Part shown: positions 4,299-38,611 of the stretch, piece after piece
Layout of the letters: every line of letters starts with the position of its first letter
Position numbering within the stretch: the first letter of the stretch is position 1
From: Octopus vulgaris
Lineage: Eukaryota
Direction of reading: 5' to 3'
Assembly (NCBI GenBank): GCA_951406725.2
Contig: OX597832.1
Coordinates: forward strand, 3,410,001-3,474,000
Length of the DNA: 64,000 bases
The notes under the pieces: generated by a model
The model's database searches: none
What the model saw: the letters and a program-made list of their open reading frames with translations, nothing else
What the model was told of the DNA's origin: nothing
Program-made: the position numbers and the translations under genes

Positions 4299-4500
4299 TA
4301 TCATTGAACATCCATTGTCCATGTTGGTATGGGTTGGAAGGTTTGATCAGAGCTGGCAAGCTGGAGAACTGCACCAGACTCCAGTTTGATTTGGCATAGT
4401 TTCTATTGCTGGATGCTCTTCCCAATGCCAACTTTATGGAGTGTACTGGGTGTGACTTTATGTGACACTTCATGGGCGCTTTTATGTGACACTGCAGAGG
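4299..4500 (-). mobile_element. Short RTE-tail / SINE-tail fragment
   Basis: catccattgtccatgttggtatgggttggaagg...gctggatgctcttcccaatgccaac matches the same tail family in reverse. Confidence 0.7.
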
Positions 4501-13912: not shown

Positions 13913-14415
13913 AGGCAGTAAGCTGGCGGAATTGTTAGTACACTGTGCAAAATGCCTTGTGGTATTCATCTAGTTTTAACATGGCATTGACATGAATGCT
14001 TTTTATGTGAAACTAGAATGAGTGCTTTTTACATGGTGCTAGCACAAGTGCCTTTTACATGACACTGTGACCCCACAAGGTAAAGACCTCTTGGCTAAGA
14101 GAGGGTGAGGGAGGCATGGCTGTAAAGGACCTGCCTGTATGTATGAGTAGCCATAGTTCTACTTAGCTTGATGTGCCTTCTCAAGCACAGCAAATCACCA
14201 GAAGTCTTGGTCCATTGTCTTCTCCTCAGTGAGGTCATCCCATTTCTATTCTGTAGAAACATGTCTGGCCATGGGGAAATACAAATTTGCTTGGACACAG
14301 GTGAGGGTTGGTGACAGGAAGGGCATCCAGCCATAGAAAATCTGTTTCAATAAACTCTGTCCAAGCCATGCAAGCATGGAAAAGTGGATGTTAAAATGAT
14401 GATGATGACAATGAT
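13913..14415. mobile_element. Composite: SINE head (+), RTE 3' fragment (-, ~14000-14235) and RTE/SINE tail (+, ~14240-14415)
   Basis: aggcagtaagctggcggaattgttag resembles the 57618 SINE head; tctcaagcacagcaaatc resembles 2720-2760; ggaagggcatccagcc...gatgatgatg tail on +. Confidence 0.6.
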
Positions 14416-15592: not shown

Positions 15593-16945
15593 GTTGGCTC
15601 TCTCATTGATGAAAATGGCACTCTTCAAGACAATGCCAAAACCATGAGAGAGATGCTGCAGAAACAATACTGCTCTGTTTTCAGCAATCCTGATATGGCT
15701 GATCTGGACTCTATCAATGATGTTACTCCCCAATACACCTTATCGGATATAACCTTTGGCGCCCTAATGTCTTAGCAGCAATAAAGGAATTCAAGCATAA
15801 TTCAGCAGTAGGTCCCGATAGGTTCCCTGCTTGTGTCTTGAAGATGTGTCAACACCAACTTGCCCCCACTGTAGCCAATCTATGGCGGAACTCACTGGAT
15901 GTTGCATTTATACCAGAAAACCTTCTATCCCAGTCTGTTGTCCCAGTTTTCAAGAAAGGAAACAAATCCCTTGCCATGAATTATTGTCCAATCTCACTCA
16001 CCTCTCGTATCATTAAGGTATTTGAGAGAGTGGTGAGATTGCGAATGACTCACTTTCTTGAGAGTCATAATATGCTGAACTCCAACCAACATGGATTCCG
16101 TAATAGAAGGGATTGCCTGACACAGCTACTGCATCATTTTGATGACATTTTGAGAGCTTTGGGAGAGGGTTCCAACACTGATGCTATCTACCTTGATTTC
16201 AGCAAGGCCTTTGACAGGGTTGATCATAAGATCCTTTTGAGAAAGCTGTTCAATATTGGTGTCACTGGAAAGCTGCTGTAGTGGATCAAGTGCTTCCTGT
16301 CAAACAGGACCCAACATGTTGTAATTGAAGGAATCAAGTCCAGCCCAGCCAAAGTCAGTAGTGGTATCCCACAAGGCACTGTGTTGGGCCCACTTCTCTT
16401 CATTATCTATATTAATGACATTACTGATATCATCAAACACAGTAACATCAGAATCTTTGCTGATGATTCCAAGCTCCAGAAGGTCATCAATGGCATGGAT
16501 GACCGGATAAGCCTTCAGTCAGACCTACTGGCTGTTGTCCAATGGGCAGAAAAGAACAACATGTTGCTAAATGAAAACAAATTCGAATTGATCCACTTTG
16601 GAAGAGAGGACACTCTGAAACTCCCATACTCCCTTCCTTCTGGTGAAATTCTCATGGCATCTAACAACATCAGAGACTTGGGAGTAACTGTGGACAACAA
16701 CATAAGCTGGGCTACACATATAAGCAGCAAAGTTGACATGGCCCACAGAATGTGTTCCTGGATTCTCAGAATCTTCCAGTCAGGAGATTCCCACACCATT
16801 ATCCTTCTCTTCTCCACTTTTGCCTGACCCCACCTTGAATACTGCTGTCCACTGAGGTCTCCCTACATGAAACAAAACATTATGAAAATGGAAGCTCCCC
16901 AAAGGTCAATCATGAAACAGATTGATGGCATGTCAGACCTCAACA
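15593..16945 (+). mobile_element. CR1-group LINE reverse transcriptase region, frameshifted and truncated at both ends
   Basis: GPD..PA, VVPVFKKG, NYCPISLTS, QHGFR, IYLDFSKAFDRVDH, SGIPQGTVLGPLLFIIYIND, IFADDSKL, RDLGV; stop codons at ~16279 and ~16825. Confidence 0.95.
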
Positions 16946-18647
16946 TGATCAAAGATTCTGCTGGTCTTGGAAGACTGAAATCATGTTGACTGAAAACATG
17001 TTGACTCAGTTTGGTTAAAACCTTTTCTATCTTTCTGAGGTTTCCTTGAAATGTTATCATAATTCGAGGCTGATATATTGTCCATACGACAAAGTCAAAT
17101 TATTTTATATGCAATGTATGTATGTAAATGGGCAGTTGAACAAATATATACACACAGATACACATAATGTGTTGGTGTGTCTCAAACAACATGTTTACAC
17201 TGCAGGTATTAAATCTTTGCAGTTGTATGTAGCTTACAGTCCTGTGATTAACATAACAACAAATATCTGTGGAGTGAAAGTCTGCTTGCTGATTCCAACA
17301 AATAGAGACAAACAGATAGATCAACTGAGAGAGAGAGAGAGAGGGAGAGAGAGAAAGAGAAAGAGCGAGAATGAGTTTATTTACCCCTATAGTTCTCATT
17401 CCTTGGATACGTAGTGTGGGTGAGAGGTATTAAGATAAATAAACTGTCTATGAATTTCTCTATCTATCAATGACAACACAAGGCCAAACAACAGGTTGTG
17501 GGAAGAATTTTTGAACTCATAAATAAGTCTTCAAGTCTGCAGTTATTTGTTATTTGATTATTGTCATAGTGAAACGTTGGTAGAATTTCGAATTAGAGAA
17601 TCCATACCTCATGGAAAACTACAATGGGTAGTTTTTTGTCTTTTTTTTTTTTAAGTATTCATATGTTTCAGAGAACAGACATTACAATTCTGTAGAAGTT
17701 GTTTTCAGATTCAGATTTTTTTACATTTTTATCCATCCCTAATATCTGTAATTTTTCTCTTTCTCATGAGGTATTGGGCTCCTCGTCTGAAACTCTGCTA
17801 TTATTTTATTTTGTGACATTGCTATATGCCTAATCACACAAGACCACACATAATTGGACGAAAGTAATATCCCTCATTACCTATATGTCTCACACCCTCT
17901 CCAGCCATCTGTAAATCTCTCACTATTCTCTCTCTCTCGTGCACACACAAACACACACCTTCTATCTATTTAGCCATCACTCCCCAACTTCCAACTATAT
18001 ATCTGTGATCTCTTCTCTCTACCTACTTACCTACATACATATATACACACCTGGCTGTCTGGTGTGTGTGTGTGTGTGTGTGTTCTCTAAAGGAGGCCAT
18101 AGTATAGCTGTCAGGTATTGGTACCCATGAATGCCTTAATAGAAGGAATTTTATGGTTATATGAGAAAGAGGTCAGGATTCCCTTCCATTAAAAAATGCA
18201 CGTTTTCACCACAGTTGAAATATTATTAGTGAAATAAGAGATGGACATTAATAACGATCTGTCTTCTTGGTGAATACTTCTCAAATCAGTATCAACACCT
18301 TCCTTACTCAGTTATGCTTTGCTTCTCTGTCCTCTCTGAAACCCAGCATAACTGGCAATAAATGTTCTGCCTGATTGCTACTTTCAATTCTCAGTATTAT
18401 AGCATTTCAAAGCAGAATTTGGTTTTAAACAATCCCATATTTTGCACTCTTAGATCTATTCTACCTGTAAAATATTTAATTGCTGTTTTCATTTCTTAGT
18501 TTAAAGATAGAAAATTAAATCTGGTAAAATTGCGTATTCAATAAAAATTTATATGATTAACTTTTAATGAAGTTCAGAAGTGTTTTGTCAGCAATGTTTA
18601 CTCAACTAAAATAAAATCTATGTTTTTGGTGATTATAATTGCTTGTG

Positions 18648-19148
18648 ACGACCTGTTGAAGCAAGTGAAATCGAAATCAAATTCGATGACTGGCATCCGT
18701 GCTAGTGGAGCGCTAAGAGTACCATCTGAGCATGATCGTTGCCAGAGTAGCTAACTGGCTTCCATGCCGGTGATACGTAAAAAGCACCATTCGAGTGTGA
18801 TTGTTACCAGTGTCACTTTACTGGCACTTGTACCGGTGGCTCGTGAAAAAACATTCAAGCGATGTTGTTGTCAGTGCCGCTGGACTGGCTCCTGTGCAGG
18901 TGGCATGTACAAAACACCATTTGAGAGTGGCCATTGCCAGTACTGCCTGATTGGCCCTCGTGCCAGTGGCATGTAAAAGCACCCACTACACTCTTGGAGT
19001 GGTTGGCGTTAGGAAGGGTATCCAGCTGTAAAAACTCTGCCAGATCAAGATTGGAGTCTGGTGCAGCTAACTGGTTCGCCAGTCCTCAGTCAAATTGTCC
19101 AACTCATGCTAGCATGGAAAGCAGACGTTAAATGATGATGATGATGAT
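18648..19148 (+). mobile_element. RTE-like LINE 3' UTR: five ~65-nt hairpin units, conserved tail and (GAT)n
   Basis: gacctgttgaagcaagtgaaatc start; ctggc-type motifs at 18690, 18755, 18821, 18885, 18951; tail ggagtggttggcgttaggaaggg...gcatggaaagcagacgttaaatgatgatg. Confidence 0.88.
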
Positions 19149-19152
19149 ATGT

Positions 19153-19666
19153 AGTCTCATAAAATTAAAAAGTCTCTAAAAGGAAATGGAGAAGAAAAAT
19201 TAAAAAGATGCTTGGTTTGTTTTATTTGTATTACAATTGGAAAAGTAATGCAAATCAAAAGATGAAAAAAATATACCTATTAAGAGTATAAAAGGAACCT
19301 CCTCAACCAACAAAATAACCCCAAAATATAAAAAAAATTATAAGATATTCTACATACATTTTTCTTATTTTTCTTGAAGAGTTCTAACAATATACAGATT
19401 ATTGCATCTTTTAAAGTTATAATTATTGATGATTCTTAAATATTGTTATATCAAAACATATATGTGTATGAAGAATATCTTCTTGTTTTTTGATATTTTT
19501 AGGTTATTTAGTTGGTTGAGACGGTTCCTTTTAAACTCTTATAGGTATATTTTTCAACTTTTATTTTGCATTACTTTTCCAATTGTAATACAAATAAAAC
19601 GAACCAAGCATATTTAACATTTTTCTTCTCCATTTTCTTTTATTGACTTTTTAATTTTATGAGACT
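19153..19666. mobile_element. Fold-back / MITE-like element with ~205-bp inverted arms
   Basis: Arm 19153-19358 (agtctcataaaattaaaaagtc...aagatattctacataca) is the imperfect reverse complement of 19465-19666; spacer ~105 bp. Confidence 0.85.
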
Positions 19667-33935: not shown

Positions 33936-34980
33936 TCATCATCATCATCATCGTGGCAAGCGAGGCTGCTAATGGCCATGATCAAATGGTGCTTTTTACG
34001 TGCCACTGGCACGGAGGCCAGTCGGTGCGGCACTGGCAACAGCCATGTTTGGATAGTTCTCTTACGTGTCACCGTCACTGGTACCACAGCTACAATTTCC
34101 ATTGATGTTGATCGATTTTGATTTTGATTTTCACTGGCCTCAACAGGTCTTCACAAGTAGAGTTTTGTGTCCCAAGAAGGAAAAGTATGCATAAGTGGAC
34201 TGGCTACATACCAGGTAGAGGCCATGGGTTATGGTCTCACTTGGCCTGCCGGGTCTTCTCACACACAGCATACTTCCAAAGGTCTTGTTCTCTAGTCATT
34301 TCCTCAGTGAGACATAAAGTTTGAAGGTCGTGCTTCACCACCTCGTCCCAGGTTTTCCTGGGTCTACCTCTTCCACAGGTTCCCTCAACCACTAGGGTGG
34401 GGCACTTTTTCACACAACTATCTTCATTCATTCTCGCCACATTGCCATACCAGCGCAAAAGTCTCTCTTGCACACCACAACTGATGCTTCTTAGGTCCAA
34501 CTTTTCTCTCAAGGTACTTACACTCTGTCGAGTATGAACACTGACATTACACATCCATCGGAGCATACTGGCTTCATTTCTTGCTAGCTTACGCATATCC
34601 TCAGCAGTCACAGCCCATGTTTCACGACCATGTTGCATGGTTGTTCGTACACCTGCATCATACAGTCTGCCTTTTACTCTGAGCAAGAGGCCTTTTGTCA
34701 CCAGCAGAGGTAAGAGCTCTCTGAACTTTGCCCAGGCTATTCTTACTCTAGAAGTTACACTTTAAGCACACACACCTCGCTATTGACTTGGTCAGCTACA
34801 TAATGAAATCTATCAACTATTTCTAATTTTTCTCCCTGGAATGTGGCGGAAGTTGGTCTCTGGGCATTTTCAGTGTTTATTGCTCCTGAGCATCTACCAC
34901 ATACAAAAACTATCTTTCTAGATAGCCTTCCTTTGACATTGCTGCACCTCTTATGTGTTCATAGCTTACACTTGGTACAT
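33935..34980 (-). mobile_element. RTE-like LINE 3' fragment: Cys/His finger, post-RT C-terminus, partial 3' UTR array, (GAT)n
   Basis: Minus frames CTKCKL*THKRCS...FVCGRC...[12 protein letters not shown], then ORF 34237-34701 (KGRLYDA..RT.M.HG.ETWA...LRWMC...RWYG...GRGRPRKTW). Confidence 0.92.
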
Positions 34981-35031
34981 ATATATGTATATGTATATAC
35001 ACATATATATATATATGTATATATATATATA

Positions 35032-35080
<49 letters not shown>

Positions 35081-35136
35081 ATGTATATATATATATGTAT
35101 ATGTATATATATATGTATATGTATATATATATGTAT

Positions 35137-35168
<32 letters not shown>

Positions 35169-35204
35169 GTATATATATATGTATATGTATATATATATAT
35201 GTAT

Positions 35205-35250
<46 letters not shown>

Positions 35251-35893
35251 GTATATGTATATATATATGTATATGTATATATATGTATGTATATATATAT
35301 ATATATATATATGTATATGTATATATATGTATATGTATATATATGTATATGTATATATATGTATATGTATATATATGTATACGTATATATATATGTATAT
35401 GTATATATATGTATATATATATGTATATATATATGTATATATATATATGTATATGTATATATATGTATATGTATATGTATATGTATATATGTATATGTAT
35501 ATGTATATATGTATATGTATGTATATGTATATATATATGTATATGTATATATGTATATATATATGTATATATATATGTATATATATATATGTATATATAT
35601 ATATGTATATATATATGTGTATATATATATGTATATATATATATGTATATATATATATGTATATATATATGTATATATATATGTATATATATGTATAAAT
35701 ATATGTATATGCATATATATATATGTATATGTATATATATATATGCATATGTATATATATATGCATATTTATATATATATGTATATTTATATATATATAT
35801 GTATATATATATGCATATGTATATATATATATGCATATGTATATATATATATGTATATATATGTATATATATGTATATACATATATTTATTTT

Positions 35894-35926
<33 letters not shown>

Positions 35927-35982
35927 GTATATGTATATATATGTATATATGTATATATATGTATCTATATATATATATGTAT
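34977..35982. repeat. ~1-kb cryptic (TA)/(TATG) microsatellite between two head-to-head RTE copies
   Basis: Directly visible. Confidence 0.97.
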
Positions 35983-38283
35983 GGGTGTGCTGAAAGTGTA
36001 ACTGCTAGAGTAAGAATAGCCTGGGCAAAGTTTAGAGAGCTCTTACCCCTGCTGGTGACAAAAGGCCTCTCGCTCAGAGTAAAAGGCAGACTGTATGATG
36101 CATGTGTACGTACTGCCATGCTACATGGTAGTGAAACATGGGCCGTGACTGCTGAGGATATGCGTAAGCTCGCAAGAAATGAAGCCAGTATGCTCCGATG
36201 GATGTGTAATGTTAGTGTTCATAATCGTCAGAGTGTAAGTTCCTTGAGAGAAAAGCTGAACCTAAGAAGCGTCAGTTGTGGCGTGCAAGAGAGACGGCTG
36301 CGCTGGTATGGTCATGTGACAAGAAAGGCTGAAGATAGTTGTGTGCAAAAGTGCTACACCCTAGCAGTGGAGGGAACCTGTGGAAGAGGTAGACCCAGGA
36401 AAACCTGGGACGAGGTGGTGAAGCACGACCTTCGAACTTTAGGTCTCACTAAGGAAATGTCTAGAGACCGAGACCTATGGAAGTATGCTGTGCATGAGAA
36501 GACCCGGCAAGACTAGTCAGGCCATAACCCGTGGCCCCGACCTGGGACGTAGTCAGTCCTGTGCATACCTTCCTTCTTGTGACACTTATGAAGACCTGTT
36601 GAGGCAAGTGAAAATCAAATCAAATCAAATCAAAACAAATCAAAATAGATGAACATCAGTGGAATTGTATTCTTTGTGGTACCAGTGCCGGTGGCACACA
36701 AGAAAACCACCCAAACGTGGCCGTAACCAGTACCGCATCGACTGGCCTCCGTGCTGTGGGCACAACAAACACCATCCGATCGTGGCCGTTCGCCAGCCTC
36801 ATCTGGCACCTGTGCCGGTGGCACATAAAGACACCATCCGAAGACCCGGCGACGTAGTCAGTCCACCTGTGCATACCTTCCCTCTTATGACACTTGTGAA
36901 GACCTGTTGAGGCAAGTGTGTGACACTTGTGAAGACCTATTGAGGCAGAGGCAAGTGTGTGACACTGGTGGAGACCTGTTGAGGCAAGTGTGTGACCCTT
37001 GTGAAGACCTGTTGAGGCAAGTGAAAATCAAACCAAATCAAAATAGATGAATATCAATGGAATTTGTATCTTTGTGGTTCCAGTACAGGTGGCACACAAG
37101 AAAACCATCCGAACGTGGCCGTAGCTGGTACCGCATCGACTGGCCTCCGTGCTGTGGGCACAACAAACACCATCTGATCGTGGCCGTTCGCCAGCCTCAC
37201 CTGGCACCTGTGTCGGTGGCACATAAAAACACCATCCAAAGACCCGGCGACGTAGTCAGTCCACCTGTGCATACCTTCCCTCTTATGACACTTGTGAAGA
37301 CCTGTTGAGGCAGAGGCAAGTGTGTGACACTTTGTGAAGACCTGTTGAGGCAGAGGCAAGTGTGTGACACTTGTGGAGACCTGTTGAGGCAAGTGTGTGA
37401 CACGCGTGACACTTGTGAAGACCTGTTGAGGCAAGTGAAAATCAAAATCAAAATCAAACCAAATCAAAATAGATGAACATCAATGGAATTTGTATCTTTG
37501 TGGTTCCAGTACCGGTGGCACACAAGAAAACCATCCGATCGTGGCCGTTCGCCAGCCACATCTGGCACCTGTGTCGGTGGCACATAAAGACACCATCCGA
37601 AGACCCGGCGACGTAGACAGTCCACCTGTGCATACCTTCCTTCTTGTGACACTTGTGAAGACCTGTTGAGGCAAGTGAAAATCAAATCAAATCAAATCAA
37701 AACAAATCAAAATAGATGAACATAAATGGAATTTGTATCTTTGTGGTACCAGTGCCGGTGGCACACAAGAAAATCATCCGAACGTGGCCGTAGCCAGTAC
37801 CGCATAGACTGGCCTCCGTGCTTTGGGGACGTAACAAACACCATCCGATCGTGGCCGTCCGCCAGCCTCATCTGGCACCTGTGTCGGTGGCACATAAAAA
37901 CACCATCCGAGCGTGGCCGTCTGCCAGCCTCGTCTGGCACCTGCCAGCCTCATCTGGCACCTGTGTCGGTGGCACATAAAAACACCATCCGAGCGTGGCC
38001 GTCTGCCAGCCTCGTCTGGCACCTGTGTCGGTGGCACATAAAAACACCATCCGAGCGTGGCCGTTCGCCAGCCTCGTCTGGCACCTGTGTCGGTGGCACA
38101 TAAAATCACCCACTACACTCTCGGAGTGGTTGGCGTTAGGAAGGGCATCCAGCTGTAGAAACACTGCCAGATCTGACTGGCCTGGTGCAGCCTTCGGGCT
38201 CCCCAGACCCCAGTTGAACCGTCCAACCCATGCTAGCATGGAAAACGGACGCTAAATGATGATGATGATGATGATGATGATGA
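35983..38283 (+). mobile_element. Young RTE-like LINE 3' fragment: open C-terminal frame (35983-36516), amplified 3' UTR, intact tail and (GAT)n
   Basis: [24 protein letters not shown]...LHGSETW...RRLRWYGHV...[17 protein letters not shown] with no stops; CpGs retained; tail 38110-38255. Confidence 0.95.
36501..38105 (+). repeat. Higher-order tandem array of the RTE 3' UTR (four ~340-500-bp macro-units with nested ~31-bp and ~57-65-bp repeats)
   Basis: gacccggc at 36501, 36843, 37241, 37602; nested tgacacttgtgaagacctgttgaggcaagtg and ggcacctgtgtcggtggcacataaaaacaccatccgagcgtggccgt units. Confidence 0.93.
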
Positions 38284-38611
38284 TATATGTATATATATAT
38301 ATTTATATATATATATGTATATATATATGTATATATATATATGTATATATATATGTATATATATATGTATATATATGTATATATATATGTATATGTATAT
38401 ATATATATGCATATTTATATATATATGTATATTTATATATATATATGTATATATATATGCATATGTATATATATATATGCATATGTATATATATATATGT
38501 ATATATATGTATATATATGTATATATATATATGTATATTTATATATATATATGTATATATATATATGTATATGTATATATATATATGTATATATGTATAT
38601 ATATGTATATA

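Follow-up and report, generated by a model that had tools for sequence, protein, structure and literature searches.

Octopus genomes contain expansions of RTE-BovB elements, and the 3′ untranslated region (UTR) of one described octopus element, RTE-2_OV, consists mostly of microsatellite, as stated in the available parts of two reports (PMC9115989; PMC8967140). For Octopus vulgaris, the supplement of PMC13282606 gives, in the portion available, 176 RTE families and 17 tRNA-Deu SINE families. RTE-derived SINE tails are described as bipartite, with a 5′-UTR piece joined to a 3′ end, and the LINEs Ingi-3_AC and R4-1_ADi as having taken up SINE pieces (excerpts of PMC5786205). Regarding the conserved domains of SINEs, the accessible sections of PMC5804259 (2016) report that no such domains were found in LINEs and put forward three untested hypotheses on their function.

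The locus described here lies in a 64-kb stretch of O. vulgaris DNA (the window), in which a first-pass annotation had reported arrays of double-hairpin units behind RTE open reading frames (ORFs). The array consists of tandem units with homologous loops in a subfamily-fixed order, its stems and loops have decayed equally since insertion, and the core motif that follows it was also found before the start codon of a related RTE.

The array and its host element

The features of the focal copy and of the other copies in the window are as follows.

15721–16827 (+): decayed LINE reverse transcriptase (RT) fragment of a separate element; Pfam RVT_1, ~25% identity to RTE relatives
18640–18688 (+): 5′-truncated start of the focal copy; RTE ORF-end duplicate and short AAATC-type remnant, no ORF
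18689–18984 (+): array of family A, five units (U0 partial, U1–U4); second hairpins start at 18699, 18764, 18830, 18894 and 18960
18969–18986 (+): end of the last unit, putatively matching a short Nin-DC-type SINE motif taken from published alignments
19001–19035 (+): conserved core motif, also found just before the ATG of a related RTE (locus L121) and in SINE-like elements of other organisms
19097–19148 (+): RTE 3′-terminal motif with small hairpin and (GAT)n tail; in the L121 RTE this motif overlaps the stop codon
2080–2790 (−): second family-A copy; frameshifted ORF tail (~2701–2786), five units (2245–2560), core and tail
33940–34979 (−): copy resembling family B; ORF C-terminus broken, with a PHD-like stretch in it; array made up of U0, U1 and the first hairpin of U2, with (GAT)n directly after it
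35983–36516 (+): C-terminus of an RTE ORF (P0001), with relatives identified by protein comparison
36517–38283 (+): family-B 3′ UTR, locally re-duplicated; four array segments, core (38127–38165) and tail

The focal array at 18689–18984 (+) comprises five tandem units with start-to-start periods of 65, 66, 64 and 66 nt. These values agree with the first-pass annotation, as do the four loops (agtagctaa, tgtcacttta, tgccgctgga and tactgcctga) and the arms of the two hairpins (tGCCAG/CTGGC and GTGCC-ggt-GGCAC). The whole focal copy spans ~18640 to the (GAT)n tail at 19148. Tandem Repeats Finder misses this array and detects the young 62-nt units at 37.9–38.1 kb.

The array had been placed directly downstream of an RT ORF. 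This does not hold for the focal copy, which is 5′-truncated and has no RT ORF ahead of it; no plus-strand frame open for more than 71 codons occurs within 17400–18700. The RT fragment at 15721–16827 was considered as the ORF of the focal copy and rejected, being only ~25% identical to the RTE lineage. The location in an RTE 3′ UTR is supported, the link to an ORF coming from the copies at 2.1–2.8, 33.9–35.0 and 36.0–38.3 kb, in which the first unit begins ~150–200 nt after the stop codon.

Full-length relatives of P0001 are 1040–1097 residues long, share ~40–52% identity with it, and contain PF03372 and PF00078, often together with PF00628. The window itself holds only the C-terminus of the RTE ORF, and the combination of an APE domain with RT is seen in these relatives. 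The closest named matches are Octopus proteins, with 75–78% identity over 40–45% of the query and, in another search, 91% over 43%. All four main copies in the window carry (GAT)n tails and have truncated 5′ ends. Domain layout and tail, rather than a tree, point to an RTE-type LINE as the host element. The clade name also rests on what we take to be a characteristic C-terminal motif.

The element occurs in very high abundance: in run X1, 87,593 contigs map onto 641 bases, with summed depths, which are not copy numbers, of 0.4–5.9 million over the array, 21 million at the core and 53.5 on unique flank. High abundance, a single long ORF with APE and RT domains in the relatives, a microsatellite tail and 5′-truncated copies are features shared with RTE-clade LINEs as presented in the available text of PMC9115989 and PMC8967140. 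Unlike RTE-2_OV (PMC9115989, in part), the element has a composite 3′ UTR of ~600 nt with an array of 62–66-nt units, and its relatives contain a PHD finger. A broken, PHD-like Cys-rich stretch was also observed in the RTE ORF at 34780–34979 (−), and PF00628 occurs alongside RT in many of 101 longer relatives (cnidarians, lancelets and fish). Within the literature entries listed, in so far as their text was available, no paper on PHD-bearing RTE ORFs was found. The unit, the core and the protein gave no match in a viral contig collection.

Further copies in the window

Over 469 nt, the second family-A copy shares 78% identity with the focal copy. Its ORF-end duplication consists of two 37-nt stretches that are 76% alike, and its loops on the minus strand (2245–2560) read gaccacgga, cgtcgcctta, tgccactgga and aactgcttga, as annotated. 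The copy at 33940–34979 has neither the core nor the terminal motif.

The copy at 36.5–38.3 kb has been enlarged locally, with array segments at ~36670–36845, 37070–37240, 37495–37600 and 37740–38110. It contains near-identical 62-nt short-loop units, an extra partial unit of 20 nt, and 33- and 40-nt tandem repeats, the duplications measuring 20, 33, 40, 62, 82 and ~400 nt. At 36840–37680, a segment running from the ORF end to unit 2 is present four times with a period of ~400 nt, and within it the ORF-end duplicate is itself repeated in tandem with periods of 33 and 40 nt; the fourfold repetition may be a local event or the mark of a family. Across copies, the array comprises three to six tandem units of 62–66 nt.

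Are the loops spacers?

The loops had been regarded as unit-specific variable inserts, in the manner of spacers. The six long loops were found to be homologous to one another: their similarity is 4.9, versus 2.5 after shuffling, and none of 5000 shuffles was as alike. Between the focal copy and the 2-kb copy, loops 2–4 are indeed homologous by position, with 3, 1 and 2 mismatches in 10 letters, and the ORF-proximal loop 1 differs at 7 of 9 positions. The 34-kb and 36–38-kb copies carry the other loop set that had been described for them (tgccgcaccga or taccgcatcga; cctcat or cctcgt).

Mapped data extend this comparison to tens of thousands of contigs and reads, across which one loop dominates each array position. 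C accounts for 90–95% of depth at 18748 and for 89–94% at 18817, and G for 56–69% at 18815 (X1, X22). At 18753, G makes up 94–98% in organism E, and organisms A and B have A (7% G); this letter is a subfamily difference. Loose ends and joints indicate other first and last units and skipped units in other subfamilies, the skips being a pattern that paralogous mis-mapping can mimic. Family A is common to organisms A and E, whereas family B is rich in A, with a summed depth of ~2–5 million, and nearly absent from E (0–76 at 37699–37859), showing that array architectures turn over. The presence of one dominant loop per position, together with the subfamily variants, indicates that the unit order is inherited from source elements.

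The mapped population data thus support the earlier proposal that unit order and number are subfamily-specific, and contradict the repeat-spacer architecture proposed with it, since the loops are paralogues of one another that descend from source elements. In CRISPR-like arrays, constant palindromic parts alternate with different inserts. The octopus array resembles these in its interleaving of palindromic constant parts with differing inserts; unlike theirs, its inserts are homologous, 6–11 nt long, fixed within a subfamily and not acquired. The first-pass statement that the array is not CRISPR was therefore correct, the inserts being related to each other and fixed per subfamily.

A composite 3′ UTR

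Downstream of the stop codon, the UTR begins with ~100 nt of sequence and a 37-nt copy of the ORF end (76% alike), after which come an AAATC-type repeat, the array, the 35-nt core and the terminal motif. Sequence comparison makes it look like a composite of the array, a motif found ahead of the start codon in a related RTE, and an RTE end.

The core is widespread in other organisms, with at least 139 loci, ~40 of which have only ~300-nt flanks; blastn of these loci against the array gave no match. The core scan of metagenome contigs covered at least 120 of an estimated 4700 stretches, and of the 141 matches listed in all, 113 belong to one SINE-like type. In the metagenome contigs (L001–L120), an abundant SINE-like element begins ~25 nt before the core and has no tRNA head.

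At L121, the single locus that gives the core a 5′-UTR position, ~25 nt separate the core from the ATG that follows it, which belongs to a related RTE on the same strand (with an APE domain; 65% to P0162). The terminal motif of this RTE can be aligned to the octopus one and overlaps the stop codon, and the element has no array and almost no 3′ UTR. Another locus, L129, combines a 5′-UTR-type piece, the core and a tail. L121 has the form of a tandem RTE junction, in which a 3′ end is followed by the next 5′ UTR and ORF. Several loci (L121, L123, L125, L130–L133 and L139) are animal-type RTE or SINE-like sequences in contigs of prokaryotic metagenome-assembled genomes, probably reflecting contamination.

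Related RTEs and SINE-like elements thus use the same 3′ end without the array. The joining of a 5′-UTR-type motif to an RTE 3′ end resembles the bipartite SINE tails and the SINE–LINE module exchange described in the available text of PMC5786205. Unlike those tails (same source, likewise in part), the octopus bipartite end stands behind an autonomous-type ORF and an array.

Likeness to the Nin-DC/Deu domain

A short Nin-type motif, chosen after the likeness had been seen, matches all three terminal units in the window, with four matches in all versus 0.1 expected. Compared by eye with the Nucella Nin consensus (available part of the PMC4758252 supplement), the last unit agrees at 17 of 18 letters when the majority C is used at 18972. 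The upstream block also matches the consensus by eye, the comparison extending over ~30 letters with no scored alignment. Relative to the 3′ half of Nin-DC/Deu, the unit contains two short blocks in the same order around a variable region (supplements of PMC4758252 and PMC5786205, in part). Block order, mollusc distribution and the abundance of Deu SINEs in octopus are points in common with this domain (excerpts of PMC4758252 and PMC5804259; EbuSINE2 and HaSE1 in PMC5786205). Unlike the domain, the octopus unit corresponds to the 3′ half only, is tandemly repeated and lies in a LINE 3′ UTR, the likeness itself being judged by eye. A Nin origin of the unit is, on the whole, fairly probable.

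No tRNA gene was called and no full-length SINE donor was found within the 64-kb window, and the unit lies behind an RTE ORF, not behind a tRNA or 5S head. The unit would therefore be no more than a derived piece and does not itself qualify as a Nin SINE. Two scans of viral contigs for the Nin motif returned 40 and 5 loci, none of which is a recognisable Nin SINE. PcH-sat of Patella is, like the array, a mollusc tandem repeat, and one derived from a Nin-SINE; it differs in being a 179-bp chromosomal satellite, mostly of the SINE 3′ part, rather than a short ordered array in a LINE (PMC11121367, in part).

How might the array have arisen?

With moderate confidence, we favour the explanation that a SINE tail was captured in the RTE 3′ UTR, that its Nin-like unit was tandemly duplicated and then inherited, and that the inserted copies decayed neutrally. 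In such a course of events, the RT would have switched template onto a Deu/Nin SINE using an RTE end, so that the 3′ part of the SINE was appended. The captured piece would have comprised a Nin-DC/Deu-like unit, the core derived from an RTE 5′ UTR, and the RTE end. Slippage or template jumping may then have multiplied the Nin-like unit, the loops diverging by point mutation in source elements and each subfamily spreading its own fixed order. In the source elements, a small RNA hairpin was probably under mild selection, which held the arms. The terminal motif likely serves in recognition of the RNA by RT and probably suffices for it, because L121 and the SINE-like elements have this motif without the array, which is probably dispensable for that step.

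Several points stand against parts of this explanation. The likeness to Nin covers ~30 letters, no full-length SINE donor was found in the window, the 5′-UTR position of the core comes from the single locus L121, and the comparison that suggests constraint on the arms draws on two decayed copies (p=0.035). Of the copies in the window, all three that extend upstream of the core region and include ORF sequence have an array, which may therefore matter in cis. Selection on a hairpin is weakened by the invariance of the arms, which would suit a sequence-specific site equally well, and by predicted folds in which the double hairpin is not preferred.

Stem divergence, folding and alternative roles

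The stems had initially been described as constant, but in the genomic copies they have decayed to the same degree as the loops. A comparison of the two family-A copies gives 21 differences in 80 arm positions and 6 in 30 positions of loops 2–4. This divergence is neutral decay after insertion. Transitions account for 85 of 95 differences in X1. A different picture was obtained between unit positions, where the arms vary in 2 of 18 columns, versus 10 of 22 for loops, linkers and spacers (Fisher p=0.035; only sites agreeing in both decayed family-A copies were used). Among the 40 of 144 rows listed, majority letters restore 8 of the 11 arm departures of the focal copy, and the other three places fall outside those rows. 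That the arms are steadier than the loops between positions and are restored by majority letters indicates that source elements kept their arms, which suggests mild constraint on the arms there. The first-pass annotation had held that equal divergence of stems and loops, with no covariation, would mark an old neutral minisatellite; a comparison of copies shows such equality, whereas one of unit positions does not.

Over 20 units, the opposing arms can pair in 92% of cells for the first hairpin and 89% for the second. Only one double change occurs in the 5-bp arms, in a single decayed unit, and the arms are thus invariant rather than compensated.

Could the array be a functional RNA scaffold, in which each unit is recognised, for binding or packaging, by the single RTE ORF protein or by a host protein, and in which unit number was selected? 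The constancy of the arms between unit positions amid varying flanking letters is in line with such a role, as is the retention of the arms in family B, in which the loop was shortened. The outer pair of hairpin 2 alternates between C-G and T-A and is Watson-Crick in 13 of 17 distinct rows (902 of 20000 shuffles; p ~0.045, uncorrected). However, both letters of this pair fall in CpG sites, and the rows are connected by descent, the 21 units coming from two families only; deamination alone could produce the pattern. Folding is similarly divided. The focal array folds better than 100 of 100 shuffles (z −2.7), and isolated young units are predicted to fold as a double hairpin, whereas a young stretch of two units and the tail folds no better than shuffles (z −0.58), and both hairpins reach a mean pair probability of at least 0.5 in only 3 of 15 units at a span of 30, 2 of 15 at 70 and 0 of 15 at 300. 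Because each unit contains several direct and inverted copies of one short motif, rival pairings compete with the double hairpin and, in context, dominate over it in the predicted folds. The related RTE at L121, which has no array, also argues against a scaffold, and the (GAT)n directly after a half unit in the 34-kb copy is most simply a deletion and offers no evidence of the array as a priming signal. A scaffold role is, on balance, rather unlikely.

The next possibility, that of a fully neutral minisatellite in which the constancy of the arms reflects recent descent, inter-unit conversion or chance, is somewhat less likely again. It accounts readily for the equal divergence of stems and loops between copies and for the active local re-duplication, and the direct and inverted copies of one motif that fill the unit would favour slippage. 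It accounts poorly for the comparison between positions, in which loops and linkers diverged but the GC-rich arms, the most mutable under C>T/G>A decay, did not; whole-unit conversion would have homogenised the loops as well.

An array of transcription factor sites acting at the DNA level, as an internal enhancer or promoter like the monomer arrays of LINEs, appears improbable. In its favour, the sequence stays invariant with no compensatory change, even in the 3-nt loop of hairpin 2, the core next to the array is a 5′-UTR motif in L121, and the arrays contain 7 of the 7 TGGC-N5-GCCA and 4 of the 7 GCC-N3-GGC sites in the window. The GCC-N3-GGC palindrome in hairpin 2 has what we take to be an AP-2-like shape, and TGGC-N5-GCCA before the short-loop units presumably an NFI-like one. 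Against such a role, the N5 spacing is confined to family B, and no start site was seen in RNA reads, a weak test.

A repeat-spacer system or a self-cleaving or processed RNA array (spacer acquisition, ribozymes or phased small RNAs), suggested by constant arms enclosing ordered, different loops and by the 5′-end ribozymes of RTE elements (PMC5786205, in part), is highly improbable, given that the loops are homologous and inherited, by which the spacer reading is already largely refuted, and that ribozyme searches gave background results.

In these searches, no Rfam match better than E 2.1 was obtained in 18500–19300 or 36450–38300. A crude HDV-like descriptor matched the sense strand of the decayed focal copy at one site and that of the other three copies nowhere, as compared with 8 of 100 shuffles; no sense-strand hammerhead core was found in the copies scanned. 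Likeness to HDV-like, hammerhead, twister and pistol ribozymes was rejected with the Rfam and descriptor scans at background. No shared RNA start or end was detected in three ordinary RNA-seq runs of organism E (~6% of each run), in which mate directions were equal and 83–84% of reads run on into unlike sequence. These libraries may be unstranded and do not sample small RNAs, making them a weak test of processing, and are silent on family B, which organism E nearly lacks. The proposed role of the array in RNA processing or as a small-RNA source thus received no support.

Precedents and significance

Each ingredient of the favoured explanation, capture of a SINE tail followed by duplication of its unit, has precedent: module exchange, bipartite tails and a Nin-derived satellite (PMC11121367, in part). 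Amplification of a Nin-type domain in a LINE 3′ UTR would be new, given the statement on LINEs in the accessible sections of PMC5804259. No description of the array was found in a search of published papers, and the accessible passages of PMC4824008 and PMC6007223 likewise contain nothing on it; because 176 RTE and 17 tRNA-Deu families have been curated in O. vulgaris (PMC13282606, in part), the sequence is probably present in a repeat library. On present knowledge, the array is a detail for the annotation of an abundant octopus retrotransposon rather than a new repeat-spacer system.

A bolder version, which we regard as doubtful, is that an autonomous LINE captured the ancient Nin-DC domain and multiplied it because each copy improves the fate of the RNA (stability, export or packaging). 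If true, the array would provide a dose series made by nature, in which the reason for the conservation of SINE central domains over hundreds of millions of years could be tested directly. Were the unit a Nin-DC under selection in a LINE, its three to six copies and its turnover between close relatives would make deletion and dosage tests possible.

Related sequences and insertion sites

At 33940–36516, two copies of one RTE ORF end, 90.6% identical, face each other head to head across 1 kb of (TA)n-rich sequence. In three of the four main copies, the terminal (GAT)n gives way to (TA)n, which suggests insertion into TA microsatellites. At the 5′ junction of the focal copy (18633–18638), single contigs of X1 and X2 contain a (TA)n insertion that is absent from the window.

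An inverted piece of an RTE ORF end (14177–14233, −) lies beside a SINE-like 3′ part (14306–14408, +) that consists of the core and tail and has no array. At 4300–4495 (−), a third abundant family was observed, in which the last hairpin, the core and the tail are common to the other families and the upstream part is different. Loose ends at 18998 and 38125 in the mapped data also point to this third family, which is a candidate for the donor SINE.
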